A stretch of 12,406 nt of DNA from a virus. The stretch lies in the UHGV virus genome UHGV-0130052. One strand, given 5' to 3'. A program made the translations under genes and the position numbers. Below the pieces are notes generated by a model. The model saw only the letters and a program-made list of their open reading frames with translations, was not told the DNA's origin and searched no databases. This document shows positions 1-12,406 of this stretch, piece by piece; the first letter of the stretch is position 1; each line of letters begins with the position of its first letter.

Positions 1-54
1 AGCAGCGCATTCGTAATGCGAAGGTCGTAGGTTCGACTCCTATTATCGGCACCA
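1..54 (+). tRNA. thrW: tRNA-Thr (anticodon CGU), 3' portion only; the 5' end lies upstream of the window
   Basis: Anticodon loop CATTCGTAATGCG (CGT at 13-15), T-arm GGTTCGACTCC, acceptor 3' strand TATCGGC, discriminator A and encoded CCA ending at 54. Matches the enterobacterial thrW sequence as I recall it; the symbol assumes an enterobacterial-type host. Confidence 0.85.
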
Positions 55-1356: not shown

Positions 1357-1375
1357 AGGAGGCATTACGCCTCCT
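1357..1375 (-). terminator. Hairpin over the stop codon of the recombinase gene (possible terminator)
   Basis: AGGAGGC-ATTAC-GCCTCCT 7-bp GC-rich stem; downstream on the minus strand is UUGAUAUUUGA, only moderately U-rich. Confidence 0.25.
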
Positions 1376-1904
1376 CTTCTTCCTTCTTGATACGTTGCAC
1401 CGTTGAAGGAGCAACATTAAAGCTCTCGGCGGTTTTACGCACTGACAGGCCATCAGAAAGGGCTTTCTTTATACCTTCTCGATCCACTGCTTTTCCATTA
1501 CCACGTTTTGTAGGATTGACGGCTTGCGCTTCTCGTTTACGTTCTAACATCAGTTCACGTTCACACGTTGCAACTGCCGACAACATCGTAAGCATCATCT
1601 TTCCCATCGCGCTTGTAATGTCTGCAATGATTCCTTCTTTGTGAAATCGAACAATTACACCTCGATTATTAAGTTGTTCAACTAAAGCAAGGATGTCTAA
1701 GGTGTTACGTCCTAAACGGTCGAGAGAGTGCACGTGTAAGGTGTCGCCTTCTCTCAGATAGGCTAAACACGCTTGTAAGCCTGGGCGGTTAGTGTCTTTA
1801 CCAGACAGCTTATCTTCAAAGACTTTATCGAGAGTTACTCCTGCAAGCTGGCGATCAGTGTTCTGATCTACAGTGCTCACACGCTTATAACCGATATTGC
1901 TCAT
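1365..1904 (-). CDS. Serine recombinase, resolvase/invertase family (179 aa) with C-terminal HTH
   Basis: N-terminal GYKRVSTVDQNTDRQ catalytic-serine motif; SLDRLGRN and SAMGKMMLTMLSAVATCERELMLER segments resemble Tn3 TnpR/Hin as I recall them; C-terminal SVRKTAESFNVAPSTVQRI HTH; AAGAGGA Shine-Dalgarno before the start. Confidence 0.9.
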   Translation of the reverse strand: MSNIGYKRVSTVDQNTDRQLAGVTLDKVFEDKLSGKDTNRPGLQACLAYLREGDTLHVHSLDRLGRNTLDILALVEQLNNRGVIVRFHKEGIIADITSAMGKMMLTMLSAVATCERELMLERKREAQAVNPTKRGNGKAVDREGIKKALSDGLSVRKTAESFNVAPSTVQRIKKEEEEA

Positions 1905-1943
1905 AAAATCCTCTTAATGTGTCGATTTGGCACTACTTCAATG

Positions 1944-1979
1944 CAAATGAGTATACCGTATTCATTTGGTCTGTTTCAA
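1944..1979 (-). promoter_or_regulatory. Putative recombinase promoter (-35 TTGAAA, 18-bp spacer, -10 TATACT on minus strand) overlapping an imperfect dyad CAAATGAGTATAC-C-GTATTCATTTG (res site I candidate)
   Basis: Hexamers read directly on the minus strand at 1974-1979 and 1950-1955; the dyad spans 1944-1968 and overlaps the -10. Classic resolvase autoregulatory layout. Confidence 0.45.
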
Positions 1980-2026
1980 GCCTTATGGGTACGGAATATT
2001 ACACGATTTAGCTGTATTCATTTGGT
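1958..2026. repeat. Direct repeat GTATTCATTTGGT x2 (1958-1970, 2014-2026), candidate accessory resolvase subsites
   Basis: Exact 13-mer repeated 56 bp apart immediately upstream of the recombinase gene. Confidence 0.5.
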
Positions 2027-2047
2027 ATGCCTAATGGATACACAGGG

Positions 2048-2477
2048 GGATAGATTAAATGATGTTCTGTTTATACAGGTTTATTTGTTAGATCAACAAT
2101 TTGGCATTTCTAAACAGATGTTTGAACGTTGCCAAATGTCTTGACAACACAAGAAAAGGGCTTGCTATGCCACGCATTACACGAAATAAGGCTGTAAAAA
2201 CAAAATAAATTTTAAAATTTGCACAAACGAGAAAACTCGTTCAGAAACAAGCAGAACAATTTTTAGCCAACAATTTATGATGGTGCTTTGTAAGCCGCAT
2301 TACACAAGGCTTTGCGAAAGTGATGTAAAAGTGAAGAAAGTGAGAATTGCACTTTTAGCTACTTTTTCATTGAATTTTTAGTATGGAATTACACAGGGAA
2401 TAGAGAGCATTATTCTATGATTTACACAGGGAATATAGGGGGATTATGGCACACACATAGAAAGACATTACACAGAG
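2048..2477. repeat. Iteron-like family: TTACACAGGGAATA (2389-2402 and 2422-2435, exact), ATACACAGGGGGATAG (2048-2063), CGCATTACAC (2173-2182, 2296-2305), CATTACACAG (2466-2475)
   Basis: Exact and near-exact direct repeats seen in sequence; two perfect 14-mers are 33 bp apart. A degenerate copy ATTACATAAGGGAAT sits at ~3432-3446. Confidence 0.6.
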
Positions 2478-2520
2478 TGCTATGTGACAAATGGATGTAA
2501 CGGTAGGTCATAGTGAGCTA

Positions 2521-2609
2521 CCCCCACAGAATTCTGTTAATCTTAACTTTTAAAGAGATTTGTACCCTAACAAAATTCTGTTACCCCACCCCCACAGAAT
2601 TCTGTTACC
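2521..2609. repeat. Three ~20-bp iterons each containing a 12-bp palindrome: CCCCCACAGAATTCTGTTA (2521-2540, 2589-2608) and variant CCCTAACAAAATTCTGTTACCCC (2565-2587)
   Basis: ACAGAATTCTGT is a perfect palindrome; copies are direct repeats flanked by C-runs and are immediately followed by an AT-rich tract. Confidence 0.7.
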
Positions 2610-2670
2610 TATTAGATCATTTATTAAATTACTTATTAAATTATAATATTATATATTTATTTATATGATC
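2610..2670. other. AT-rich tract (almost pure A/T), candidate DNA-unwinding element of an origin
   Basis: TATTAGATCATTTATTAAATTACTTATTAAATTATAATATTATATATTTATTTATATGATC directly downstream of the palindromic iterons. Confidence 0.4.
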
Positions 2671-2840
2671 TTTTGCCTTCCGGCGTTAGCTTCACTCTCT
2701 GGCAAGCAGCCTTACTCCGCTACCTTTCGGGCTACGTTGGCTGGCCCGTTCCGCTCACACCGAAAGCAAAGCGTTACTTTCTTCGTGTAACTATCGTTGG
2801 CGGTAACGCCCACGAAGAAATACTATTGCGCTGTGCGCAG
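2671..2840. other. GC-rich, highly self-complementary island in an otherwise AT-rich non-coding region (candidate structured RNA or cis-acting DNA site; strand unknown)
   Basis: Perfect 10-bp stem TTTCTTCGTG (2778-2787) / CACGAAGAAA (2811-2820) enclosing a GGCG-GTAA-CGCC hairpin (2799-2810); CTTTCGG (2724-2730) / CCGAAAG (2760-2766); TGCGC-TGT-GCGCA hairpin (~2827-2839). The overlapping ORF 2673-2951 looks non-coding. Confidence 0.3.
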
Positions 2841-3476
2841 AAGAGTAATCACCTAACCAATCATACTGATTGCTTATGTGTTAACTCTATCTCTCTACTC
2901 TTAATTACCCTCCTACATTTAATAACTCTGTTATTCTCTGTAGTTGTGTAATTGTTTTCGGTGGAAAAGCCAGAGGCGACACCGAAAGAGAATTCTGATC
3001 TTATTAATCTTATCTATCTTAGTTAATCTTCTTACTTATCTTACTTACTTTATCTACTTTATTATTAATAATAGCTTTATAAGCTCTCTGCGTAGCTCTC
3101 TGACGCAAGAAACAGCATTCAGGAAGGGAATCACCTTAGAAAAGTGTTCTTTGCGTCATAATGTGTTTTATGAAGGATTCAGAGGTGTTTCATAACAGGA
3201 ATGTATAGAGGATACTTTAATTAATTAAAAATAAGGGGTCTAAATGCTTCTCTAACAGCATTAAGCAGGGTAGGGAATGGAAACGCATTGCCTACACATA
3301 TAAGCTCACTACAGGGCTTTACAGGGCGTTTTATAAAGTGACTCTCTATCTTATATCTACCATTACCTTTTCATATACCTAACAAATACAAAATAAGCCC
3401 CTTAAATAAGCCTCTGGCGAGCTAAACAGCCATTACATAAGGGAATGTATTGCTTTTATCAAAATCTCGTTATAAC

Positions 3477-3496
3477 GCGTTTTAGAGCGTTTTAGA
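3477..3496. repeat. Tandem direct repeat GCGTTTTAGA x2, candidate operator ~85 bp upstream of the 3581 promoter
   Basis: Exact 10-bp tandem duplication seen in sequence. Confidence 0.5.
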
Positions 3497-3580
3497 CAAT
3501 AATGAAGAATGGCACTACACAGAAGAGCACGAGTTGCTCGTAAGTGCATGAAAAAGATCGATTTTTTTCGGAAGGGGTAT

Positions 3581-3609
3581 TGACAAACGTCTCTTTCTGT
3601 GCAATAATA
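3581..3609 (+). promoter_or_regulatory. Sigma70-like promoter: -35 TTGACA (3581-3586), 17-bp spacer, -10 AATAAT (3604-3609), for the 3733-5986 operon
   Basis: Consensus -35 with optimal spacer; near-consensus -10; ~120 nt upstream of a gene with a strong AGGAGG ribosome-binding site. Confidence 0.5.
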
Positions 3610-3732
3610 GGAATTAGAGGGGACAGGAATAGATTCTTATCCTCTAAATAATTAAACCAATGCACCGCACTTTGAAGCCCAAGGCTTGCAAGGTGTTTTT
3701 TCTTTTAACCAAATAGAATAGGAGGTTAATTA

Positions 3733-3921: not shown

Positions 3922-3943
3922 TAGACAAGAGAAGGAGAAAACT

Positions 3944-4111
3944 ATGAGCGAAACTAAGAAACCAATTCCGCGCACTTACCTACACGTTGACCCTGAAATC
4001 TTCAAGGTTTTATTTGCTGAAGCCAAGAAAAGGCAAATTATGGTCAGTGATTTGATGTTAGAAATCATTACTGAAGCAGCAGAGAACATCAAACAAAAAA
4101 AGGGTAAGTGA
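3944..4111 (+). CDS. Putative ribbon-helix-helix (CopG/Arc-like) DNA-binding protein (55 aa)
   Basis: AGGAG 6 nt upstream of ATG 3944 (internal start of track ORF 3878-4111); N-terminal basic strand RTYLHV followed by two predicted helices, typical RHH layout. Judged by eye. Confidence 0.5.
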   Translation: MSETKKPIPRTYLHVDPEIFKVLFAEAKKRQIMVSDLMLEIITEAAENIKQKKGK

Positions 4112-4162
4112 TCCTCATTCACTTTAGTAGCGCATTAAGCGTGATTTATAAGGAGATTTTTA

Positions 4163-4816
4163 ATGATTAATGAAGAACAATTTGTAAAAGTTCCTATGTG
4201 GATTCTAAAAATAAGCCAAGTAAACGGGCATAAATTTACAGATAGTGCTAAAAACCTTTACTGCTATCTGAAAGGGTTTGATCGTGCATTTCCCTCTTAC
4301 GCTAAGATAGGCGATGTTTTTGGCATAACACCAAGAGCAGCAGAGGAAAGGGTTAAGAAATTGCTCGAAATGGGATTAATTATAAAAGATGCACGACCAG
4401 GAAGTTCTAATGTCTATCAAGTGGTAGATATTCCACAAGAAGAAGCTAGACAAGAAGCCAAGACACAACAAGAAGCTACTGTTAAAGCTGTTCCTGATCA
4501 GCTTCCGCCTACGGAAGATAATAAACAGCCTTCTTTTGATGTTCTTGATGATTGGGATACGCCTTTACCGTGGGAGACGGAAGAAACACCTGTTTCATCA
4601 AGTGAAAAGGTAGCTAATGATAATGAGGAGGATGTGTTAGAAAATTTTGCCTCTCTTATTATCAAGCAGAAGAATACCAGAACAGCAGGGGCATCATTTA
4701 TAGAATTTGCAAATTCACTAGCTTATAGACACGGGCTAAAACGACCAAATGGTATTGAGGCATATTTTGCTAAGAAACATCCCAAAGTATACGAAGACTT
4801 TGATATTCCATTTTAA
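4163..4816 (+). CDS. Putative replication initiator/replisome-organiser-like protein: N-terminal winged-HTH, acidic C-terminal region (217 aa)
   Basis: AAGGAG Shine-Dalgarno; N-terminal segment (YAKIGDVFGITPRAAEERVKKLLEMGLI) has the look of phage/plasmid initiator wHTH domains; acidic DDWDTPLPWETEETP stretch. Function is inferred, not demonstrated. Confidence 0.45.
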   Translation: MINEEQFVKVPMWILKISQVNGHKFTDSAKNLYCYLKGFDRAFPSYAKIGDVFGITPRAAEERVKKLLEMGLIIKDARPGSSNVYQVVDIPQEEARQEAKTQQEATVKAVPDQLPPTEDNKQPSFDVLDDWDTPLPWETEETPVSSSEKVANDNEEDVLENFASLIIKQKNTRTAGASFIEFANSLAYRHGLKRPNGIEAYFAKKHPKVYEDFDIPF

Positions 4817-5235: not shown

Positions 5236-5646
5236 ATGGCAAAAAGAAAAAACAATGTTGTTAAGAAAATCGGGGATTCAGCTTCTCTTCTAAGTAAACC
5301 TAAATCTATTCTAAGACGCAAAGACTTTAAAGAGCTAGTTACGCTCACCAAGCATAATAGCGCCCCTGGCGAATGGAAAACAGAGATCATAGAACATTCT
5401 CCCTCTGTGCCTTGTGGAGATGAATTTAACGCATTACAAGAAATCTTATCTTCAACACCTGGCGTATTCTGGAAACCTAGAAAAAGAAAAGAGTATATTG
5501 TTGATAGCTCTGATTTACGCAAATACCAGATTTTAGGATTTGAAGACTATAACCACTACGTTGGTTATCTCGCCACCAATGGCCTAAATAATTTAGTTCC
5601 TGAATTCCAAATTTTAGATAATGCTGATCACTATGGAGACTTTTAA
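5236..5646 (+). CDS. Hypothetical protein with basic N-terminus (136 aa)
   Basis: Same strand and operon; AAGGA upstream; the antisense ORF 5184-5522 is rejected in its favour. Confidence 0.5.
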   Translation: MAKRKNNVVKKIGDSASLLSKPKSILRRKDFKELVTLTKHNSAPGEWKTEIIEHSPSVPCGDEFNALQEILSSTPGVFWKPRKRKEYIVDSSDLRKYQILGFEDYNHYVGYLATNGLNNLVPEFQILDNADHYGDF

Positions 5647-6015: not shown

Positions 6016-6044
6016 TTGACATTTCATCTATTGTATGTTAATAT
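6016..6044 (+). promoter_or_regulatory. Sigma70-like promoter: -35 TTGACA (6016-6021), 17-bp spacer, -10 TAATAT (6039-6044), upstream of the capsid-containing operon
   Basis: Consensus -35, optimal spacer, near-consensus -10; a second -10-like hexamer (AATTAT/TATATA) follows immediately. Confidence 0.55.
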
Positions 6045-6214: not shown

Positions 6215-6227
6215 AGGGTAATTACAA

Positions 6228-6257
6228 AGGCGGCTTTAAATGCTGCCTTTTATTTTG
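6228..6257 (+). terminator. Intrinsic terminator inside the leader, ~60 nt upstream of the first gene of the capsid operon
   Basis: AGGCGGC-TTTAAAT-GCTGCCT stem (7 bp, one G-U) followed by TTTATTTTG. Confidence 0.5.
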
Positions 6258-6318: not shown

Positions 6319-6531
6319 ATGTTGTTTTTAAACGATAAAGAGCAAATCATCAAGTATAAAGATGAAATGCTGAAAATTAATCCACAAATTACCGAAATGG
6401 TAGCTAAATACGCTGGGTGTTCTGTAGAGGAAGTAGAAAGATGTGTTGAAAAATATTTTTCTCCTTCTTCTCCGTCTACACCTTCCCTTAATGAACTAAT
6501 CAAATTAAAAGCTAAGGAGATTACTAAATGA
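6319..6531 (+). CDS. Small hypothetical protein (70 aa)
   Basis: Stop overlaps the next start (ATGA), suggesting translational coupling; weak ribosome-binding site. Confidence 0.4.
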   Translation: MLFLNDKEQIIKYKDEMLKINPQITEMVAKYAGCSVEEVERCVEKYFSPSSPSTPSLNELIKLKAKEITK

Positions 6532-6890
6532 TTATTGATTTAGACACTCTTTTTCCAAGTCGAAAGACGTTTACAGATCTGGTGGCTTATTGTACTGATC
6601 CGTTTGCCTCTGTAGAAAACAAGGTTTTTGCTTCTCTTCCTGCTGATGTTGAATGCGGAGACTTGATCACCAGCACTGGCGCTAAATATGAATCAGGAGA
6701 TGATATCTATGTTGTTATGAGTGAATTTGTAACGGCTGGGGAAAACAAGCCTGTAGATGTGCTACGTAGCAATGCTGGCCTTGTGTGCATTAAAGCTGAT
6801 GCGCTGAATGCTGTAAGTGAAGCAGCAAAAACAGCATTAATTAAAAAAGGCTTCCAGCTTGAAGGCTTTAATACGGTTTTCACTTCTTAA
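6528..6890 (+). CDS. Hypothetical head-module protein (120 aa), positionally analogous to a decoration or scaffold protein
   Basis: AAGGAG Shine-Dalgarno; ATGA overlap with upstream gene; sits directly upstream of the capsid-like gene. I see no convincing similarity to lambda gpD, so the role is positional inference only. Confidence 0.5.
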   Translation: MIIDLDTLFPSRKTFTDLVAYCTDPFASVENKVFASLPADVECGDLITSTGAKYESGDDIYVVMSEFVTAGENKPVDVLRSNAGLVCIKADALNAVSEAAKTALIKKGFQLEGFNTVFTS

Positions 6891-6908: not shown

Positions 6909-7937
6909 ATGATTCTAGGTAATGATTACGTTGATTTGATCCCTCTGTTCCAGACACACAGCACGCGTAACTTCCTGCTCTCTACCCTTGATTTTACGGA
7001 TTCTGTAGGGGTTACATCTCATAAAGTAGCTGTTTCACAGCTTGTCGAAAGCAACGAATCTCTGTTCAACAAAGAAACCTCTCGTTTCTCTTCTGAACAC
7101 AACGTTACTAAGCGAGAACAAGGTAAAGAATGGCTGATTGAAATCCCTTACTTCCTACGTGAAGATGTGATCCGTCCTTCTGATGTTCAAGGCAAGCGTA
7201 AACCTGGCACTGATTTCCAGGAAACACTCACTGATATTTATGCTGAGTATGTTGCTAAACATCACGTAGCGTATCAGCGTACAAAAGAGAGCGTGTTGGC
7301 GGCTTCTTTGTTCTCTGGCAAAACTTACACGCCTAAAACTGATGATGTTCTTATCGAGTGGGGCAAGCTGTTTAACGTATCAGCTATGAAAGCCACTGTG
7401 AACGCTTCCAGCACTGACACCACGAAGATTTTTAAAGAATTTGATCAGATTGCTACTGACATTATCGAAAAAGCACAAAGCCAGGCGGCTGCTGTAGAGC
7501 GTATTGTTGTTTTCTGTAAGCCGGAAGCCTTCTCTGCAATTCGATTCTCTGCGGGTATGGCAAACGCATTCCAGTATGTAAGCCCACTGGAAGAAGGGAA
7601 CGTTGTGTATCAGCGTCGTGACCTGCTACCAGGAGTGACAGCGTTCACTATTCCAGGAACTAACATTGATGTTGTTAAACTGGTAGATCCGCTACACCTG
7701 GCACATATGACCGCAGACGCTGTAGCTGTGCCTAAATTCTCTAAGGGTAGCGGAATTTATACCAATATCTTCGGGGCTGCTTCCAGCACCTTTGAACTGA
7801 TTAATGCCGCTCCTGCTGAGGTGTATAGCTATAGCTATGAATCTTCTCGTGGTGATGCTGTTAACGTTGTTACAGAGAATAGCCAGATGGTTGTAAACCA
7901 CGGTGTAGGCTTCTCCGTTCAAATCACTGTTAAATAA
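6909..7937 (+). CDS. Putative major capsid protein, lambda gpE-like family (342 aa)
   Basis: Length close to lambda gpE (341 aa). Local similarities to gpE as I recall it: RIVVFCKPEAFSAIRFS vs IIVFDPKGWALFRSF, LFSGKTYTPKTDD vs VLKGKYTMTGE, C-terminal FSVQI vs VSVQLA, N-terminal DLIPLFQ vs FDPLFLR. Followed by a strong terminator. Not verified by search. Confidence 0.55.
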   Translation: MILGNDYVDLIPLFQTHSTRNFLLSTLDFTDSVGVTSHKVAVSQLVESNESLFNKETSRFSSEHNVTKREQGKEWLIEIPYFLREDVIRPSDVQGKRKPGTDFQETLTDIYAEYVAKHHVAYQRTKESVLAASLFSGKTYTPKTDDVLIEWGKLFNVSAMKATVNASSTDTTKIFKEFDQIATDIIEKAQSQAAAVERIVVFCKPEAFSAIRFSAGMANAFQYVSPLEEGNVVYQRRDLLPGVTAFTIPGTNIDVVKLVDPLHLAHMTADAVAVPKFSKGSGIYTNIFGAASSTFELINAAPAEVYSYSYESSRGDAVNVVTENSQMVVNHGVGFSVQITVK

Positions 7938-7955: not shown

Positions 7956-7990
7956 AGGCGTGGCGTGAATAACACGCTTCGCCTTTTTTT
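7956..7990 (+). terminator. Strong intrinsic terminator after the capsid-like gene
   Basis: AGGCG/CGCCT outer and GCGTG/CACGC inner stem (loop AATAA) followed by seven Ts, then ATTTATTTTT. Confidence 0.75.
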
Positions 7991-8023: not shown

Positions 8024-8224
8024 ATGGAAGTGATTCTGAAATCAAAAAACGGTGTACACGTACATTTAGATGCTAATGATTCTAGAGGCTTGTTAAATCT
8101 GAAATATCTATGTTCTCTCTTAGATGTTCCATATGAAGGAGTAAAAGCCCGTATGTTCAGACTAAACGAGAGTATTGATCAGGCTCTACACCATTTCTTA
8201 AGCAAAGAAGGTGGTAAAAAATGA
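8024..8224 (+). CDS. Small hypothetical protein (66 aa)
   Basis: GAGGTGA upstream of ATG; same operon and strand. Confidence 0.45.
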   Translation: MEVILKSKNGVHVHLDANDSRGLLNLKYLCSLLDVPYEGVKARMFRLNESIDQALHHFLSKEGGKK

Positions 8225-8242
8225 TTAATAAGGGGATTTTAA

Positions 8243-10084
8243 ATGTTAGAAATTAACACTTCTAAAATTAAGAACACAGTAACATTTAGTGTAGATAAAG
8301 ACAGCTTGAAAAAAGCGAAAGACTCTATTACAGGCTTAAAGGAATTCGCAGAAAATATCAAGCCAGCTAAATTGAGATTTGATAATGTCACTAAAGGCTA
8401 TAAGAAAGCACAAAGTGAAGTAGACAAGATTACTCAACAGAAAGCTAAAACAGAAAAACAGAATCAAAGAGCACAAGCTGCCGCAGCAAGAGCACAGGCA
8501 AGGCAACAGGCACAAATAGCAGCACGTAAAGAGAAAGCAGAATTAAAACTTCTCGATGTGTCAAGCTCTATCAGTGCAATGCACCGCCTCTCTGTAGCGG
8601 AACAATACAAAGCTATTGCACAGGCTAGAGAGATAGCAAAACAATATGAGCAAGGGGCTATCTCGCTTGCACGTATGAATAGCCAGATGAAACGCCTACA
8701 ACAACAACAACGTAAGATTAATGGCAACAGAAAAACTCAATTAGCCCCCGTTAAGGGAGGATCAGGGAATTCCGCCACTATGGGCGCTCTGTTATTTGGA
8801 GGCGCTACGGCTGCTGCTGGCGTGATGGCTGTTAGCAAAGCGGCGGAGTTTGTTAGTAGCAGTTTCGCTAACGCAGAGACCCAAGGGGAGCTAATCCAAC
8901 GTGCCAAGCTGGGCGGTGTAGACGTTAACCAGATGTATAATATTACAGAATGGGCCTATAGACACGGGATCGATAGCCTCCAGGGAGATCAAGGGGCTAG
9001 GAAATACCTGGATCAGATGAAAGATGTTAGGGAACGTGCCGCAAAATCCTACAGTGAAGCTGAATTGGTGAAAGACAAGAAAACCGGAAAATCTGAATGG
9101 AAAGGCGGTGATAACGCTATTAATGAACTTCTAAACATCGGTGTTATTAACAAAAGCGACCTTAAAAAATTTGCTGATAATCCAGCCGGATTAATTTCTA
9201 AGGCTGTTAATGGAATGATGAAAAAAGGGTTTTCAGACTCCCAAATTGGACAACGTTTAGAAGACCTGGGCGATGATTTGATGCTTACATCAAAATATTG
9301 GCAACGTTCCGTTAAAGATGTACAAGAAAGTATTAATCAGCAAAAAGCCTCTGGAAAATGGCTAACAGAAACACAGCAAGAATCTATTGTTAAATTCAGA
9401 GAACTAAACAGACAGCTTTCACAGCTTTCTGATGCAAGACAAGTAGCATTTGTAGACGGCTTTATGAAATCTCTCGATCCAAAAGTAACGGAAGAGTTTA
9501 TGAAAAACCTTTCTAATCTCACTCCGTATTTTACGAAGCTGGGTGAAGCCGCAGGAAGTCTTTTTGACGCCATTATGAAGATTGTAAACTGGTTTAATCG
9601 TAATGATGATAAGACAGATGCTATTCAGAAAAATATGGGTGATGCACCGCCACTATCTAACGATGGAATGAAACAGAATCTTTCTAACCTCGTTCCTGAT
9701 AAATATAAAGGCGCTGGCACTGCAACAACTACACCTGATAATAGTCATTCCCTCTTTAACACAATTAAGGGATTGCTTTTCGATGATAAGTCTTCTGTGT
9801 CAGATGTAAAAATGTCAGTCAGCGAAGCACCGATAACCAATCTCAAACAGGGTGCTTTAAATAATCTTGCAATGACAACTCCGGCTTATAATTTATCTCC
9901 TGTGTTTAATCTGAATCCTACATTTGAAGTGGTAACAGAGGTTCCGCTTACTATTAATTCTGACACATCCAGATTAAGCGATTATGTGGATTTTACAGCG
10001 AGAGCAAGTCGGGATAGCTTCTTGAAATCATTAACATTAACCAGCTTGTCAGGACAATCCAACGGCGGGGAATTCCCGCCATAA
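8243..10084 (+). CDS. Large hypothetical protein (613 aa): N-terminal coiled-coil-like region rich in Q/A/K/R, Gly/Ala-rich hydrophobic segment, large C-terminal domain; tape-measure-like or scaffold-like
   Basis: AAGGGGA 6 nt upstream of ATG; residues ~60-170 are helical and low complexity (QRAQAAAARAQARQQAQIAARKEKAELKLL); hydrophobic TMGALLFGGATAAAGVMAV; no catalytic motif recognised. Confidence 0.6.
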   Translation: MLEINTSKIKNTVTFSVDKDSLKKAKDSITGLKEFAENIKPAKLRFDNVTKGYKKAQSEVDKITQQKAKTEKQNQRAQAAAARAQARQQAQIAARKEKAELKLLDVSSSISAMHRLSVAEQYKAIAQAREIAKQYEQGAISLARMNSQMKRLQQQQRKINGNRKTQLAPVKGGSGNSATMGALLFGGATAAAGVMAVSKAAEFVSSSFANAETQGELIQRAKLGGVDVNQMYNITEWAYRHGIDSLQGDQGARKYLDQMKDVRERAAKSYSEAELVKDKKTGKSEWKGGDNAINELLNIGVINKSDLKKFADNPAGLISKAVNGMMKKGFSDSQIGQRLEDLGDDLMLTSKYWQRSVKDVQESINQQKASGKWLTETQQESIVKFRELNRQLSQLSDARQVAFVDGFMKSLDPKVTEEFMKNLSNLTPYFTKLGEAAGSLFDAIMKIVNWFNRNDDKTDAIQKNMGDAPPLSNDGMKQNLSNLVPDKYKGAGTATTTPDNSHSLFNTIKGLLFDDKSSVSDVKMSVSEAPITNLKQGALNNLAMTTPAYNLSPVFNLNPTFEVVTEVPLTINSDTSRLSDYVDFTARASRDSFLKSLTLTSLSGQSNGGEFPP

Positions 10085-10105: not shown

Positions 10106-10819
10106 ATGGCGACCGCCGGGATTTTAACCATACGATCAGCAAACTCCCCAGAACAACACGTTCAGGCTGTTTACAAAGCAGAACAAGATATAAACTCTAC
10201 AAAAAACACAAATAACTCTGCCTCTACTGTGAAAGGAGAGAATGGATTTGCTATTGTTACCAGTGGCTTGGCATCTTCTGGTAATGACGTTTATGAAAAT
10301 TATATGGCACTGGCCTTTGACAGTGTTGACGATGTGAACGTGAGACGTTCGGCAGATGTCACAAGCTACCCCGTAGAGAATGGTGCTACTGTGTCTGATC
10401 ACGTTCAAATTAAAAACAATAAGTTTTCTCTTAAAGGGCGTATCTCTGAAACACCGATTAAAAGCGATCCTGGCTTGTTAAAGAGTGCAGGGGTGAACGG
10501 GAACAGAAGATCATTAGCTATCGACTACCTGAATCAGATTATGGACAGTAGACAGCCTTTTCTTCTTGTTACAGAAAATAAAACTTTTGAGAACGTTGTT
10601 TTAACAGGCATCGAATACACAGAAGAGGCAAGCGAATCCCTGGTATTTGATCTTAGCTTTGAACAAATCAGATTAGTTTCTTATGGCACTGTAAACACTG
10701 TAGCTATCAAAACACAGCCATCTAAGAACATAGGGGCTAATATGAAAAAACGTGTTAACACTGAAAAAGCAAGTAGTGAAGGTGAAGACACTATTACTCC
10801 TGCCTTTAAACAGGAATAG
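10106..10819 (+). CDS. Hypothetical protein (237 aa), composition suggests beta-rich; possible virion or accessory protein
   Basis: AAGGA upstream of ATG; last gene of the operon, convergent with the integrase; no motif recognised. Confidence 0.55.
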   Translation: MATAGILTIRSANSPEQHVQAVYKAEQDINSTKNTNNSASTVKGENGFAIVTSGLASSGNDVYENYMALAFDSVDDVNVRRSADVTSYPVENGATVSDHVQIKNNKFSLKGRISETPIKSDPGLLKSAGVNGNRRSLAIDYLNQIMDSRQPFLLVTENKTFENVVLTGIEYTEEASESLVFDLSFEQIRLVSYGTVNTVAIKTQPSKNIGANMKKRVNTEKASSEGEDTITPAFKQE

Positions 10820-10900: not shown

Positions 10901-12265
10901 CTATGGTGTTGTTTTACGCCTTAAATTTGATTTTTTATTGATTGATAAGCCTTTCTCTATTTCAGGGTAGCGTAGAAGCTCAATATATTTTTTAAGCTCT
11001 ACTGGAGAAGCTGCATTCTTGCTATATGTGCGGAATGTCTCTGTATTGCCGCGTGTATGGCCCAGGAGAAGGGCGATCCTGTCTTCTGGAATTTGATTTC
11101 GATCAAGAAGCTGTGCTACTCCGTGTCTCAGAGAATGAAACACCTTCCTTTCTGTTCCCTTTTCCCCTAAAGCCTTTCGTTTAGCTCTTGTAAATCTCTG
11201 CGTGTGCCACGTAGAGCGTTTACCATCTACACGCTCTGTAATGCTGGCGTGATAGAACAAAAAGCCATTATGAGGCTTTTCACGCAGCGACAACACCAAC
11301 GGAGTGATAAGGCTGTGTACAGGCACAACACGTGCCGCAGCTTTCGTTTTTCCCTGTGTGATTTCAAAACACAGCACACCTTCGATCTCTTTCACATCGT
11401 CTATTGTGAGACTTGCTATCTCATTGATCCGCATACCTGTATATAAACCGATAAGACACAAAGCCATCATTTCTTTGTTTTCTGCTGAATTACCGGAAAA
11501 TACTTGCAACACCTGCAATAGCTCTTTGTTAGAAAATGCCTCGTAGCTCTCTCTACTTTGTGCCACATCAAGCCTATGCCCTCGCCAGGGGGAGAGCGCC
11601 CTTTCTGGCGCATCGTGGTAACGTGATGAAGCTAACTCCCATAGCTGGGCCATTGGGCTGATATAATTTGCAATTGATTGTTGTGAAAGGGTTTTTTGCA
11701 TGTGTTCAATCCAGCCTGTAACAGTGGTGCGGCTTACATCTTGCAATGCAATATCAGGCTTTTTACGGTAGGAGAGAAACATCTCTACCGCTTTTCTTGC
11801 CTTAGCTAAAGTGGCTGGCTTCTTCTTCGTGCTGTTAATTGTCAGGTAGATTTCAAGAATTTTAAGCAATGACGGACACGAAGACGCTGTATCTTGCATT
11901 CTGGTAGCTGTTTTGGCGTATTTAGCCTTACTGCGTAACAGCTCCAGCGTGTTCTCTATTGTGCTGTTTACAGGGGCGACACTCTCCCGTAGACAATGGT
12001 ATTCATCTGCAATCTGATCACGCTTTCTACGTGCAACACGAAGATTACTTGTGTGCAGACTCCTGACAAACGTCCTTTTTCCTTCAAAAAAGGGCTGCAT
12101 ATACACAGGCAACGTGATCCTCAAATAGTAGTTACCGTAAGAATCACAGATTATGTATTGATTGGGCTTGTATCTCATAAACTCCCCGGCTAAAGTGTCG
12201 GAGCGTTTGTAATGTGAAAATTGATTGTGACGCATAGAAAATGATGATTTTTCTATAAGATTCAA
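10901..12265 (-). CDS. int: Tyrosine site-specific integrase (454 aa)
   Basis: C-terminal catalytic-domain motifs HSLRHGVAQLL and LLGHTRGNTETFRTY (His/Arg/Tyr signature); start lies ~55 bp from the right-hand att repeat and the gene reads away from it. The ribosome-binding site is weak, so the exact start is uncertain. Confidence 0.9.
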   Translation of the reverse strand: MNLIEKSSFSMRHNQFSHYKRSDTLAGEFMRYKPNQYIICDSYGNYYLRITLPVYMQPFFEGKRTFVRSLHTSNLRVARRKRDQIADEYHCLRESVAPVNSTIENTLELLRSKAKYAKTATRMQDTASSCPSLLKILEIYLTINSTKKKPATLAKARKAVEMFLSYRKKPDIALQDVSRTTVTGWIEHMQKTLSQQSIANYISPMAQLWELASSRYHDAPERALSPWRGHRLDVAQSRESYEAFSNKELLQVLQVFSGNSAENKEMMALCLIGLYTGMRINEIASLTIDDVKEIEGVLCFEITQGKTKAAARVVPVHSLITPLVLSLREKPHNGFLFYHASITERVDGKRSTWHTQRFTRAKRKALGEKGTERKVFHSLRHGVAQLLDRNQIPEDRIALLLGHTRGNTETFRTYSKNAASPVELKKYIELLRYPEIEKGLSINKKSNLRRKTTP

Positions 12266-12320
12266 TCAATTAGTAATGGTCGTAGGTGATGGCATTAACA
12301 CGAGATTAATCGAGTGTTTT

Positions 12321-12340
12321 ACTCCTATTATCGGCACCAT
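12321..12340. repeat. attR core: second copy of the 20-bp direct repeat (duplicated tRNA 3' end)
   Basis: ACTCCTATTATCGGCACCAT identical to 36-55; not preceded by the rest of a tRNA, so it is a partial tRNA copy marking the element boundary. Confidence 0.8.
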
Positions 12341-12406
12341 TAAAATCAAAGAGTTACCCCATATTTAAATACACCACGTTTCCTCCTGTGCCGTATTTGT
12401 GCCATT

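Follow-up and report, generated by a model that had tools for sequence, protein, structure and literature searches.

A satellite-like chromosomal island of Escherichia coli carries a gene for a predicted phi92 gp134-type tail tape measure protein

The window analysed here, the whole 12,406-nucleotide stretch of the UHGV virus genome UHGV-0130052, contains an integrated element bounded by direct repeats. The 28-nt attL (31-58) corresponds to the 3' end of tRNA-Thr(CGT) and is repeated as attR (12316-12343), an imperfect copy of the tRNA 3' end with 89% identity. A partial tRNA match was found at window positions 1-51, and tRNA-Thr is present in L002. The minus strand encodes a tyrosine integrase (10901-12265; PF00589, E 1.5e-17); on the plus strand are a replication-initiator-like HTH protein, hereafter Rep-like (4163-4816; phrog_270, E 2.6e-10), and a major capsid protein of the lambda-E / phi92 gp124 type (6909-7937; PF03864, E 9.4e-14), which is 22% identical to phi92 gp124 (E 2e-8). 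The island is a 12.3-kb E. coli chromosomal element integrated at tRNA-Thr. Downstream of the capsid gene, a consensus scan detected a terminator-like hairpin (7962-7978, plus strand), tentatively regarded as a putative attenuator. It separates the capsid gene from a module of plus-strand genes comprising a 66-aa ORF (8024-8224), the 613-aa ORF under study (8243-10084) and a tail tube initiator gene (10106-10819). A 120-aa ORF (6528-6890) was considered as a counterpart of the phi92 decoration/cement protein gp123 and rejected, since BLASTP revealed no similarity.

The 613-aa ORF starts with an ATG codon located 3' of an AAGGGG Shine-Dalgarno-like motif. An earlier note on this DNA had described it as the largest gene of the element; indeed, no other ORF in the window is as long, the 454-aa integrase ORF being second, and it is conserved and intact. 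We identified 923 homologues (the largest cluster having 1,944 member sequences), the ORF was uninterrupted in 10/10 other complete copies examined, and the median dN/dS was 0.17 (55 pairs; dS up to 0.47). The gene is therefore real and does not correspond to a chance ORF. Considering the protein by parts, dN/dS was 0.10 at the N-terminus (aa 1-60) and 0.07 for aa 541-613. The gene, including its conserved core, is under purifying selection. Protein length is kept at 608-616 aa among the island copies, and in one of them (P0073) a block (aa 64-95) has been swapped, leaving the overall length unchanged.

Similarity searches consistently pointed to a tail component. The protein matched phrog_16051, annotated as 'tail length tape measure protein', over aa 127-609 (E 7.7e-52), phi92 gp134 by BLASTP (E 3e-34, approximately 27% identity overall), the tape measure protein (TMP) of phage phiWec188 over its full length (aa 1-607, 27% identity, E 9e-55) and the PDB chain 21vq_V, Phi92_gp134 (E 1.8e-38). 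Because of these matches, the assignment of the 613-aa protein as a phi92 gp134-type tail TMP is strongly supported by homology. The role, which the earlier note had given as unknown, can be specified accordingly, and the tape measure was the one of its suggestions that was borne out. No family match and no catalytic domain were detected in Pfam and NCBIfam, in agreement with the previous observation that no catalytic motif was visible, and no clear homology to a housekeeping or unrelated protein family emerged. The TMP family comprises 73 clusters among 1.84 billion proteins and was found only in phi92-like phages (134 phage records) and islands.

Two other roles had been put forward for this ORF. 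As a capsid scaffold or size determinant, it would redirect assembly to a small shell, like P4 Sid or TcaP from the Vibrio cholerae PLEs. The position of the gene 3' of the capsid gene and its predicted long helical region would suit this role, which is nonetheless extremely improbable: the homology extends over the full length of a structurally located tail protein, the C-terminal motif aligns to the segment located inside the phi92 baseplate, a tube initiator gene accompanies the TMP gene, and no similarity was found to the phi92 scaffold gp122 region. Placing the gene in a capsid operon was correct insofar as it lies after the capsid gene; functionally, however, it is partnered with the tail-tube initiator gene downstream. 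The proposal of a defence effector received no direct support, and a known anti-phage defence protein was rejected; PADLOC only reported JetC (E 0.0019) on the coiled-coil aa 51-175, a compositional match.

The TMP is organised into distinct regions, all encoded on the plus strand. The N-terminal module (aa 1-60; 8243-8422) is the part closest to phage TMPs, with 55% identity to phi92 gp134 aa 1-65; relative to the phage clade, identity amounts to 0.61 at aa 1-20 and 0.47 at aa 21-40. It is followed by a Q/A/K/R-rich, predicted long-helix region (aa 61-165; 8423-8737) made of 19% A, 17% Q, 11% K and 10% R, and by a Gly/Ala-rich hydrophobic segment (aa 176-205; 8768-8857) defined by hydropathy and by alignment with the hydrophobic segment of gp134. 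Hydropathy peaks at aa 179-197 (TMGALLFGGATAAAGVMAV; KD19 = 1.6), and aa 166-205 contain 25% A and 17% G. Both regions had been recognised in the earlier note, and composition and hydropathy agree with that description. The Gly/Ala segment occupies the same position throughout the TMP family and is predicted to be membrane-active or lumen-packing. The C-terminal domain of about 400 residues described previously exists as a region, but not as one domain. It consists of a conserved core (aa 206-460; 8858-9622) of ~250 aa that is predicted to be mostly helical and measures ~240 aa in all family members, with D257, K260, D261, G288, G289, P314, E340 and G434 as invariant residues, followed by ~150 poorly conserved residues and then a conserved C-terminal motif (aa 579-609; 9977-10069).

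This motif aligns to the baseplate-resolved part of phi92 gp134. Residues 631-656 of gp134 are the segment resolved in the baseplate interior (PMC13450770), and island TMP aa 582-607 are identical to this segment at 11 of 26 positions. Its conservation suggests that the motif may represent the part docking in the baseplate hub. The two ends of the TMP that would have to contact helper parts are its most conserved and most constrained regions. An AF2 model was built from 10 near-identical sequences (at least 94% identity); its secondary structure was mostly helical, with a continuous helix at residues 19-115 (97 residues), but the model has low confidence, with a mean pLDDT of 37.9 and values of 55-74 only at aa 270-340.

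Comparison of island and phage TMPs indicated a difference in length. Island TMPs have a median of 621 aa (599-636) and phage-clade TMPs a median of 646 aa (634-659; Mann-Whitney p = 1e-4, on sets in which cognate helper-island pairs are not established). The protein described here has 613 aa, whereas phiWec188 and phi92, both E. coli phages, have TMPs of 651-659 aa. It is in the N-terminal third that the lengths diverge, in the helical and Gly/Ala regions: the region corresponding to aa 61-165 is 105 aa long in the island TMP versus 126-138 aa in the phage clade, and the one corresponding to aa 166-205 is 41 aa long versus ~79 aa in most phage-clade TMPs. The ranges touch, two island TMPs reaching 632 and 636 aa and a phage TMP measuring 634 aa, which rules out an absolute rule of short islands and long phages; the sequences indicate a tendency of island TMPs to be shorter. 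In phi92, the tail contains 24 rings with a rise of 38.63 Å (PMC13450770), corresponding to ~1.4 Å per residue over 659 aa.

The touching length ranges weaken a rationale purely based on length and lend some weight to an alternative in which the private TMP serves entry. In this case, the ejected TMP with its Gly/Ala segment would form a DNA conduit, and a satellite TMP would escape immunity against the helper TMP or suit the ejection of a 12-kb genome. The Gly/Ala segment has a conserved position across the family and, along with one other region, is remodelled in islands; defences targeting TMPs also exist, for example Rta and the Tai systems (PMC11364771). An entry function would leave the duplicated tube initiator of this lineage, which is not ejected, unexplained, and we consider it decidedly unlikely as the main role.

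Directly 3' of the TMP gene, the tube initiator gene encodes a Dit_like protein (PF21821, E 2.5e-29) with 62% identity to phi92 gp135. It matched PDB 21vq_N (E 7e-81) and 9cuy_K, described as 'tube initiator' (E 8e-13). In the cryo-EM structure, phi92 gp135 is a hexameric tube initiator (PMC13450770). The order of the two island genes matches gp134-gp135. This pairing is not universal, the tube initiator being missing from several other island lineages; the capsid gene co-occurs with the TMP gene in most of them.

On the 5' side, the 66-aa ORF is weakly HTH-like and always paired with the TMP gene in relatives, where it was found in L005-L008, L023-L028 and L030. In phi92 and ICP1, a Phage_TAC_15 gene precedes the TMP gene. 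Comparison of the 66-aa family with gp133 and with the tail assembly chaperone (TAC) gave a hhalign probability of 0.2% for each. Sigma70_r4_2 weakly matched 3/7 members (best E 0.032), and a Foldseek search using a model with a pLDDT of 77 returned no match. The ORF was therefore rejected as a TAC or gp133 homologue, BLASTP, hhalign, Pfam, PHROGs, PDB sequence search and Foldseek all being negative for these two proteins. The TAC family (PF21822, Phage_TAC_15) had no match in the 17 island ORFs scanned. In an island with no recognisable chaperone, the TAC of the helper would therefore have to serve.

Matches to the sampled phi92-type head-tail-baseplate blocks of ~20 kb were limited to the capsid protein, the TMP and the tube initiator. 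Portal, terminase, sheath and tube families had no match among the scanned island ORFs (Pfam, PHROG), nor did protease and head-tail connectors, and tblastn with the phi92 portal-to-terminator genes did not detect any match in the island. The description of the element as satellite-like agrees with its att repeats, integrase, Rep-like gene and incomplete virion gene set. The island looks like a satellite of phi92-like virulent myophages (Stephanstirmvirinae).

TMP genes were present in every island lineage examined, and these TMPs form a clade that is spread across the Enterobacteriaceae. Out of 5,426 complete E. coli genomes, 229 (~4%) carry at least 80% of the island, many more carry relatives, and a circular 14-kb relative also exists. 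Strains 1919D3 and JNEC-KY174 are among the E. coli carrying the island. Viral contigs scanned with P0123 and P0128 gave no match. All IMG/VR matches were prophage-style calls from isolate genomes and were discarded as uninformative regarding encapsidation. Copies of the TMP gene cut by IS elements and truncated were found on IncHI1A plasmids and in L028, as would be expected from a decaying remnant of a phi92-like prophage or a random capture devoid of current function. This origin is very improbable for the island: phi92-like phages are virulent and have 145-150 kb genomes, whereas the island is a discrete 12.3-kb unit between att sites that carries an integrase and a Rep-like gene of its own. 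The intact ORF with its dN/dS of 0.17 at dS values up to 0.47, the synteny kept across genera and the 229 complete genomes with at least 80% of the island also argue against decay.

We propose that the island protein is probably a satellite TMP on which chimeric contractile tails are nucleated, using parts of the helper. During helper infection, the island TMP would be made along with the island tube initiator. The C-terminal motif of the TMP would dock in the helper baseplate hub, and the island tube-initiator hexamer would then sit on top. Helper tube and sheath subunits would polymerise around the island TMP using the helper chaperone; polymerisation would halt at the conserved N-terminal end of the TMP, and the helper terminator would cap the tail. 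The island TMP is ~40-50 residues short in its N-terminal helical and Gly/Ala regions; a shorter tail is therefore predicted, the chimeric tail lacking ~1.5-2 tube/sheath rings (5-7 nm) as compared to the 24-ring tail of the helper. Such tails would have ~22-23 rings and be joined to small capsids. On infection, the TMP would be ejected before the island DNA. We infer expression on infection, particle incorporation, the shorter tail and the identity of the helper at the genus level. Myophage heads and tails assemble separately; the matching of a satellite tail to a satellite head, or the benefit gained, is therefore hard to explain, and this also applies to PLE.

The closest parallel to the proposed tail building is found in PLE. 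In PLE virions, its own TMP and the Dit_like protein BhuB replace those of ICP1; PLE tails are ~11 nm shorter, and deletion of tmp cuts transduction by ~99.9%. PLE and the island are alike in being small, integrated and confronted with a large virulent myophage, and in having a private TMP that is only distantly similar to that of the helper: the PLE TMP is ~20% identical to that of ICP1 (19-41% range) and the island TMP 27% identical overall. The element TMP is the shorter one in both cases (582 versus 677 aa for PLE, 613 versus 651-659 aa for the island). A Dit_like protein is also present in both (ICP1 Gp78 (BhuB): PF21821, E 1.2e-17), and ICP1 and phi92 share their tail gene order. The two systems differ in several respects. 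PLE encodes a TAC, whereas none was recognisable in the island; a major capsid protein is among the island's own products, whereas the ICP1 coat is remodelled by PLE with the scaffold TcaP; and the island has a tyrosine integrase at tRNA-Thr, another host family and another helper subfamily. Incorporation of the TMP and its requirement were demonstrated in PLE and are predicted for the island. BLASTP revealed no similarity of ICP1 gp79 (TMP C-terminal exon) or gp78 to either the TMP or the tube initiator of the island. This comparison, made via ICP1 gp78/gp79, suggests that the island and PLE resemble each other in design and are not members of one family.

In phi92 as in the island, the tube-initiator gene directly follows the TMP gene, and gp134 shares the N-terminal module, the hydrophobic segment, the ~240-aa core and the C-terminal baseplate motif. 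The island TMP is 46 aa shorter than gp134, all in the N-terminal third, its gene lies on a 12.3-kb chromosomal island instead of a 148-kb phage, and neither the TAC gp132 nor gp133 has a counterpart upstream of it. The cf-PICIs resemble the island in being enterobacterial and having their own capsid protein, and some of them have a predicted TMP. They reportedly encode a full head and packaging set including portal, protease, terminase and connectors (Alqurainy et al. 2023). By contrast, this set was not detectable in the island; the helpers of cf-PICIs are also of the temperate siphophage type, not phi92-like myophages.

Analysis of the putative helper side pointed to an antagonism with the island. 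Some phi92-like phages encode a nuclease with an island-Rep-like DNA-binding domain. The nuclease gp094 of phage muut has an N-terminus that is 40% identical to the DNA-binding region of the island Rep-like protein (E 4e-18) and a C-terminal MUG113/T5orf172 nuclease domain. The phages ICP1 and muut both carry a chimeric Rep-like + T5orf172/MUG113 nuclease. In ICP1, this is Odn (Gp88), which likewise joins an element-Rep-like DNA-binding domain to a T5orf172 nuclease. Odn is an origin-directed anti-PLE nuclease with a DNA-binding domain 42% identical to PLE RepA_N (Barth et al., eLife 2021, PMC8263062). The DNA-binding parts differ, with a DUF6945/RepA_N fold in Odn versus HTH_36 x2 in muut gp094, and no significant similarity between the two proteins was found outside the nuclease motif. 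Based on this domain composition, the phages appear to fight back at the island with a predicted Odn-like nuclease. The iteron region of the island is located at about 2520-2607 and 2998-3065.

Island gene order is kept across genera. Between genera, the TMP shows 35% identity versus 53-65% for the capsid protein, tube initiator and integrase, and is among the fastest-diverging island genes. Fast divergence fits an arms race, and the nuclease suggests a counter-attack by the phages; both would also be expected if the TMP, with the tube initiator, mainly acted as a dominant-negative decoy leading to short, unstable or non-infectious helper tails. The selected role would then be the protection of the bacterial population, not the building of island particles. 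Predicted docking ends that are conserved, together with a middle that has diverged, suit a competitive inhibitor, and satellites often pair hijacking with interference, PLE11 restricting ICP1 tail assembly. Nevertheless, the fixed length of 608-616 aa, kept across the block replacement, and the purifying selection on the whole protein, core included, fit a working ruler better. In PLE, interference is carried out by a separate protein, Rta, and the TMP is needed for transduction; PADLOC returned no defence-family match for the island protein. We therefore regard a decoy as its main function as unlikely, though worth bearing in mind. Some interference with the helper may occur as a side-effect and is compatible with the island TMP building chimeric tails.

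Satellite-encoded tape measures were first demonstrated in 2025-26 in the V. cholerae PLEs, which were presented as the first known case of satellites manipulating the assembly of tails; tail building with a satellite TMP has so far been demonstrated experimentally only for PLE. Quite possibly, although we put this forward tentatively, the islands form a widespread, undescribed enterobacterial satellite family that re-specifies the head size and tail length of its helpers, in a PLE/ICP1-like arms race with phage Odn-like nucleases aimed at the island replication origin. On this reading, the family would occur both integrated and as circular episomes in E. coli, Klebsiella, Kluyvera, Pantoea, Buttiauxella and other genera, and its defining cargo would be a private capsid protein and a private TMP. 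Literature searches returned no account of this island family; their coverage leaves out most subscription-journal papers, which makes an earlier description possible. If true, this would be a second, independent satellite family rebuilding phage tails, and the first in the genetically tractable E. coli; tail remodelling would then represent a recurrent satellite strategy. The combination of a core TMP gene, a near-atomic phi92 tail structure and an E. coli host provides a tractable system that could address why a private ruler is needed by a satellite and by what means it is selectively incorporated. Phages of the phi92-like, Phapecoctavirus and Justusliebigvirus groups are often considered for phage therapy and biocontrol, and such islands could lower phage efficacy or spread through treatment.

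DNA has been exchanged between the island and phi92-like phages. The plus-strand segment 3932-4170 is shared with phage muut (blastn, 238/239 nt, 99.6% identity); it covers the beginning of the Rep-like gene and a 55-aa gene (3944-4111) with an RHH-like sequence pattern, whose product has the same sequence as muut gp095. The 5' ends of both the TMP gene and the tube-initiator gene show 86-90% identity to phi92 DNA, the initial 87 nt of the TMP gene being at 86%. Recent recombination was considered at these ends; the claim was dropped because a hand count gave ~6 synonymous differences in 29 codons as compared to phi92, and constraint or old gene conversion fits equally well. A non-coding stretch of 35 nt (1322-1356) exactly matches phage ZCKP1. 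In every listed phage of this hit class (up to ~64 phi92-like phages), the ~80 nt around it show 81.5% identity.

The gene at 8243..10084 on the plus strand is the longest ORF of the window; it has an ATG start, is preceded by a Shine-Dalgarno-like AAGGGG and encodes 613 residues. The architecture described in the earlier note was recovered: residues 61-165 are rich in A/Q/K/R, and hydropathy reaches its maximum in a Gly/Ala segment at 179-197 (Kyte-Doolittle mean of 1.6 over 19 residues). Only one point required correction, since the C-terminal part of ~400 residues is not a single domain. No domain was found in Pfam or NCBIfam, and confidence in the predicted structure was too low for use (pLDDT 37.9). 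The tape-measure-like role, one of several the note had offered, was borne out by a match to phrog_16051 'tail length tape measure protein' (E 7.7e-52) in PHROGs. BLASTP aligned the protein with phi92 gp134 (E 3e-34), identity being 55% over residues 1-66 and 27% over residues 150-609, and the tape measure protein (TMP) of phage phiWec188 gave a full-length alignment (E 9e-55). The best PDB match was again phi92 gp134 (21vq chain V, E 1.8e-38), which a 2026 cryo-EM study describes as a trimeric TMP with residues 631-656 resolved inside the baseplate (PMC13450770). Island residues 582-607 align with this segment in the BLASTP alignment and match it at 11 of 26 positions. A tblastn search of 50,697 phage genomes returned matches in 134 phages only, with genomes of ~130-154 kb in every match listed; those with checked taxonomy were all Stephanstirmvirinae (phi92, Phapecoctavirus, Justusliebigvirus). 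It is near certain that the island protein is a TMP homologue. The earlier finding was real and can be defined more closely than reading the sequence alone allowed: this is a TMP carried by a satellite-like island.

Downstream of the TMP gene lies a Dit_like gene (10106-10819; PF21821, E 2.5e-29); its product shares 62% identity with gp135, which forms the hexameric tube initiator of phi92 (PMC13450770). Upstream, a lambda-E type major capsid protein (6909-7937) is 22% identical to phi92 gp124. When all island ORFs were compared by tblastn with the ~20-kb head-tail-baseplate blocks of phi92 and phiWec188, only the capsid protein, the TMP and the tube initiator matched. Shared with a capsid gene as this region is, we find it hardly credible that a protein with these tail matches is a capsid scaffold. 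Among the 17 island ORFs scanned, none matched a tail assembly chaperone (TAC) family, and portal, terminase, sheath and tube families were likewise without a match in scanned ORFs. A 66-aa ORF (8024-8224), directly 5' of the TMP gene, stands where phi92 has gp133; it is related neither to gp133 nor to the TAC gp132 (Phage_TAC_15), with an hhalign probability of 0.2% each. It has a weak sigma-70 region-4/HTH signal, its model is a beta-hairpin with two helices (pLDDT 77), and a fold search with it was empty. ORFs of 60-76 aa precede the TMP gene in loci L005-L008, L023-L028 and L030, and none was called in L029, so that a small ORF 5' of the TMP gene is kept in all island loci examined bar one, including an IS-truncated plasmid remnant.

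The window constitutes a discrete island, delimited by imperfect 28-nt direct repeats (31-58 and 12316-12343) that correspond to the 3' end of tRNA-Thr(CGT). It lies between the proA and pao genes in strain JNEC-KY174, and is present over at least 80% of its length in 229 of 5,426 complete E. coli genomes. It encodes a tyrosine integrase, a replication-initiator-like HTH protein and a Hin/Gin-type DNA invertase (1365-1904, minus strand; Resolvase PF00239, E 7.5e-34; phrog_125, E 1.3e-54). Positions 1905-3700 form a long stretch without credible genes, in which iteron-like repeats (2520-2607 and 2998-3065) comprise three copies of the 20-nt repeat ACCCCCACAGAATTCTGTTA and 13/26-nt tandem repeats; this region is probably a replication origin or a regulatory region. 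A consensus scan identified a sigma-70-like promoter at 6016-6044 (TTGACA-17-TAATAT, extended TG), followed by a terminator-like hairpin at 6226-6250, ahead of the structural genes, and by a second hairpin at 7962-7978, between the capsid gene and the TMP module. These elements may provide antitermination or attenuation control. A stop-RBS-start motif (TAAGGAGATTTTTAA then TG) recurs at four junctions (4149-4163, 5632-5646, 6513-6527 and 8229-8243), which suggests translational coupling along the operon, TMP start included.

Related islands were found in other hosts. Buttiauxella has the same order of small ORFs, capsid protein (65% identity), 66-aa ORF (54%), TMP (35%), tube initiator (53%) and integrase (55%), and the order is partly kept in Citrobacter, Phytobacter and Kluyvera. 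In a Pantoea-type relative (L023; Logan SRR7500800, 14,065 bp), the ends of the contig overlap by 30 bp and a 279-aa ORF runs through the join, which shows it to be a circular molecule of ~14 kb. Besides the capsid gene, a small ORF and the TMP gene, it has a Dit_like gene and genes for a ParA-like ATPase and a short tyrosine recombinase. Contigs of 14.05-14.18 kb were seen again in several samples. The island family thus includes episomes in addition to integrated elements. In other lineages, a ~120-aa ORF, the capsid protein, a small ORF and the TMP make up the invariant core; only some of these lineages have a tube initiator as well. Because of the att repeats, the integrase and Rep-like genes, the missing virion genes and this recurring core, we read the family as satellite-like, with capsid protein and TMP as its signature cargo. 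It is a widespread enterobacterial family and apparently an undescribed one, no description having been found in the searchable literature. Some lineages encode a PhiTE-type head-tail adaptor (PF26075; L029 6965-7300, L030 10889-11392), so different lineages duplicate different subsets of helper virion parts; PF26075 also matches the adaptor-position gene of phage contig L031. On large conjugative plasmids, beside a BREX system, lies a truncated remnant cut by IS6 and IS3 (IncHI1A plasmid NZ_AP027830, L024 8808-12437) that comprises the small ORF, a 619-aa TMP and the integrase. In a second E. coli lineage (L025 9001-10866), the 621-aa TMP, with 174 cluster members (P0126), is misnamed 'cell envelope integrity protein TolA' in NCBI annotation, probably on account of its helical region rich in A/Q/K.

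The TMP ORF is intact in 11/11 complete E. coli copies despite dS of up to 0.47, one further copy running past its contig end. The median dN/dS of the complete copies is 0.17, with minima at both ends of the protein (0.10 for aa 1-60, 0.07 for aa 541-613), and it is very improbable that such a gene is a decaying remnant. Copies are 608-616 aa long, and in variant P0073 residues 64-95 differ wholly in sequence at unchanged length. Searched exhaustively, 1.84 billion representative proteins contained only 73 clusters of the family. In a separate homologue search, TMP clusters had up to 1,944 member sequences. Full-length members split into two clades. Those of the phage clade lie on contigs that reach 135-155 kb and hold complete structural modules; those of the island clade lie either in chromosomes, the largest of 5.5 Mb, or in small integrase-bearing elements. 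Island TMPs are shorter (median 621 aa, range 599-636, versus 646 aa, range 634-659; Mann-Whitney p = 1e-4), a strong tendency rather than a rule because the ranges touch (islands of 632 and 636 aa, one phage of 634 aa). The window TMP has 613 aa, compared with 651 aa in phiWec188 and 659 aa in phi92, both E. coli phages. The difference is limited to the N-terminal helical region (90-115 aa in islands, 126-138 in the phage clade) and the Gly/Ala region (41-69 versus about 79 aa); the ~240-aa core and the C-terminal part have the same size in both clades.

Unexpected matches emerged when the remaining island DNA was compared with phages. Window positions 3932-4170 are 99.6% identical (238/239 nt) to the virulent phage Justusliebigvirus muut (NC_052657; L032 3001-3600), and 4450-4516 (67 nt) are 95.5% identical to it. 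The longer segment holds an entire 55-aa gene (3944-4111), the product of which has an RHH-like sequence pattern and is identical to muut gp095, together with the beginning of the gene that follows; the segment is present as well, at 86-96% identity, in phages inny, BI-EHEC and Mt1B1_P17. A 35-nt non-coding sequence (1322-1356) matches phage ZCKP1 exactly. The ~80 nt in which it lies (1278-1356; L033 1501-1581 in ZCKP1), just past the terminator-like hairpin of the invertase gene, have a counterpart of 81.5% identity in all phages listed for this class of hits, which number up to about 64 phi92-like records. With no Rfam or tRNA match and no overlapping phage ORF >54 aa, this segment may be a common regulatory or packaging signal. 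As sequence comparisons, these data indicate very recent DNA exchange with the same phage group whose TMP the island mimics, and are independent evidence of contact between the two. Adjoining the shared segment, muut gp094 (L032 3232-4230; 332 aa, two HTH_36 domains) is 40% identical in its N-terminal region to the island Rep-like protein (4163-4816; E 4e-18) and ends in an endonuclease domain of the MUG113/T5orf172 type (phrog_681, E 2.2e-18). ICP1 Odn, an origin-directed nuclease against PLE, is built in the same way, with an N-terminus 42% identical to PLE RepA_N fused to a T5orf172 nuclease (PMC8263062). By analogy, gp094 is a candidate anti-island weapon of phi92-like phages, which suggests an arms race; the Rep-like protein and the phage nuclease would both naturally be expected to target region 1905-3700.

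The nearest known system is the tail module of PLE, the Vibrio cholerae satellite of ICP1, and the satellite TMP of the island is a variant of this recently discovered kind of system. The PLE set (TAC, TMP and BhuB) is 19-41% identical to its ICP1 counterparts. In PLE virions the 582-aa TMP (677 aa in ICP1) and BhuB stand in for the phage proteins and tails measure 94.5 nm against 105.9 nm in ICP1; tmp deletion lowers transduction by about 99.9%. Tail gene order is the same in ICP1 and phi92, and BhuB (ICP1 Gp78) and the island gene at 10106-10819 are both Dit_like. Despite this resemblance in design the island is not a PLE: it lacks a recognisable TAC, it encodes a capsid protein of its own where PLE uses a scaffold to remodel the coat of the helper, it has a tyrosine recombinase as integrase, and BLASTP detected no similarity of the island TMP or tube initiator to ICP1 gp79 or gp78. 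Other tmp carriers named in the Nature PLE paper are Vibrio PLE-like elements and some cf-PICIs only; the island, without portal, protease or terminase, is not a cf-PICI.

We consider it probable, from sequence and from the PLE precedent, that the TMP would act as ruler and scaffold of chimeric tails, built with helper parts for the island's own particles. This reading is based on conservation of the two presumed docking ends and of protein length, on the partnership with a tube initiator and on purifying selection, together with the satellite-like context and the DNA exchange with phages. It is weakened by the absence of a chaperone gene, by a tube initiator that is not universal and by the touching length ranges. 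That the TMP is mainly an interfering decoy is unlikely, and a specialisation for delivery or immune evasion has a slimmer chance; both are compatible with a ruler. The tail of phi92 is built of 24 tube/sheath rings at a rise of 38.63 Å (PMC13450770), about 927 Å per 659 residues or about 1.4 Å per residue. On this scale, a ruler shorter by 38-49 residues predicts a tail shorter by 53-74 Å, or 1.4-1.9 rings.
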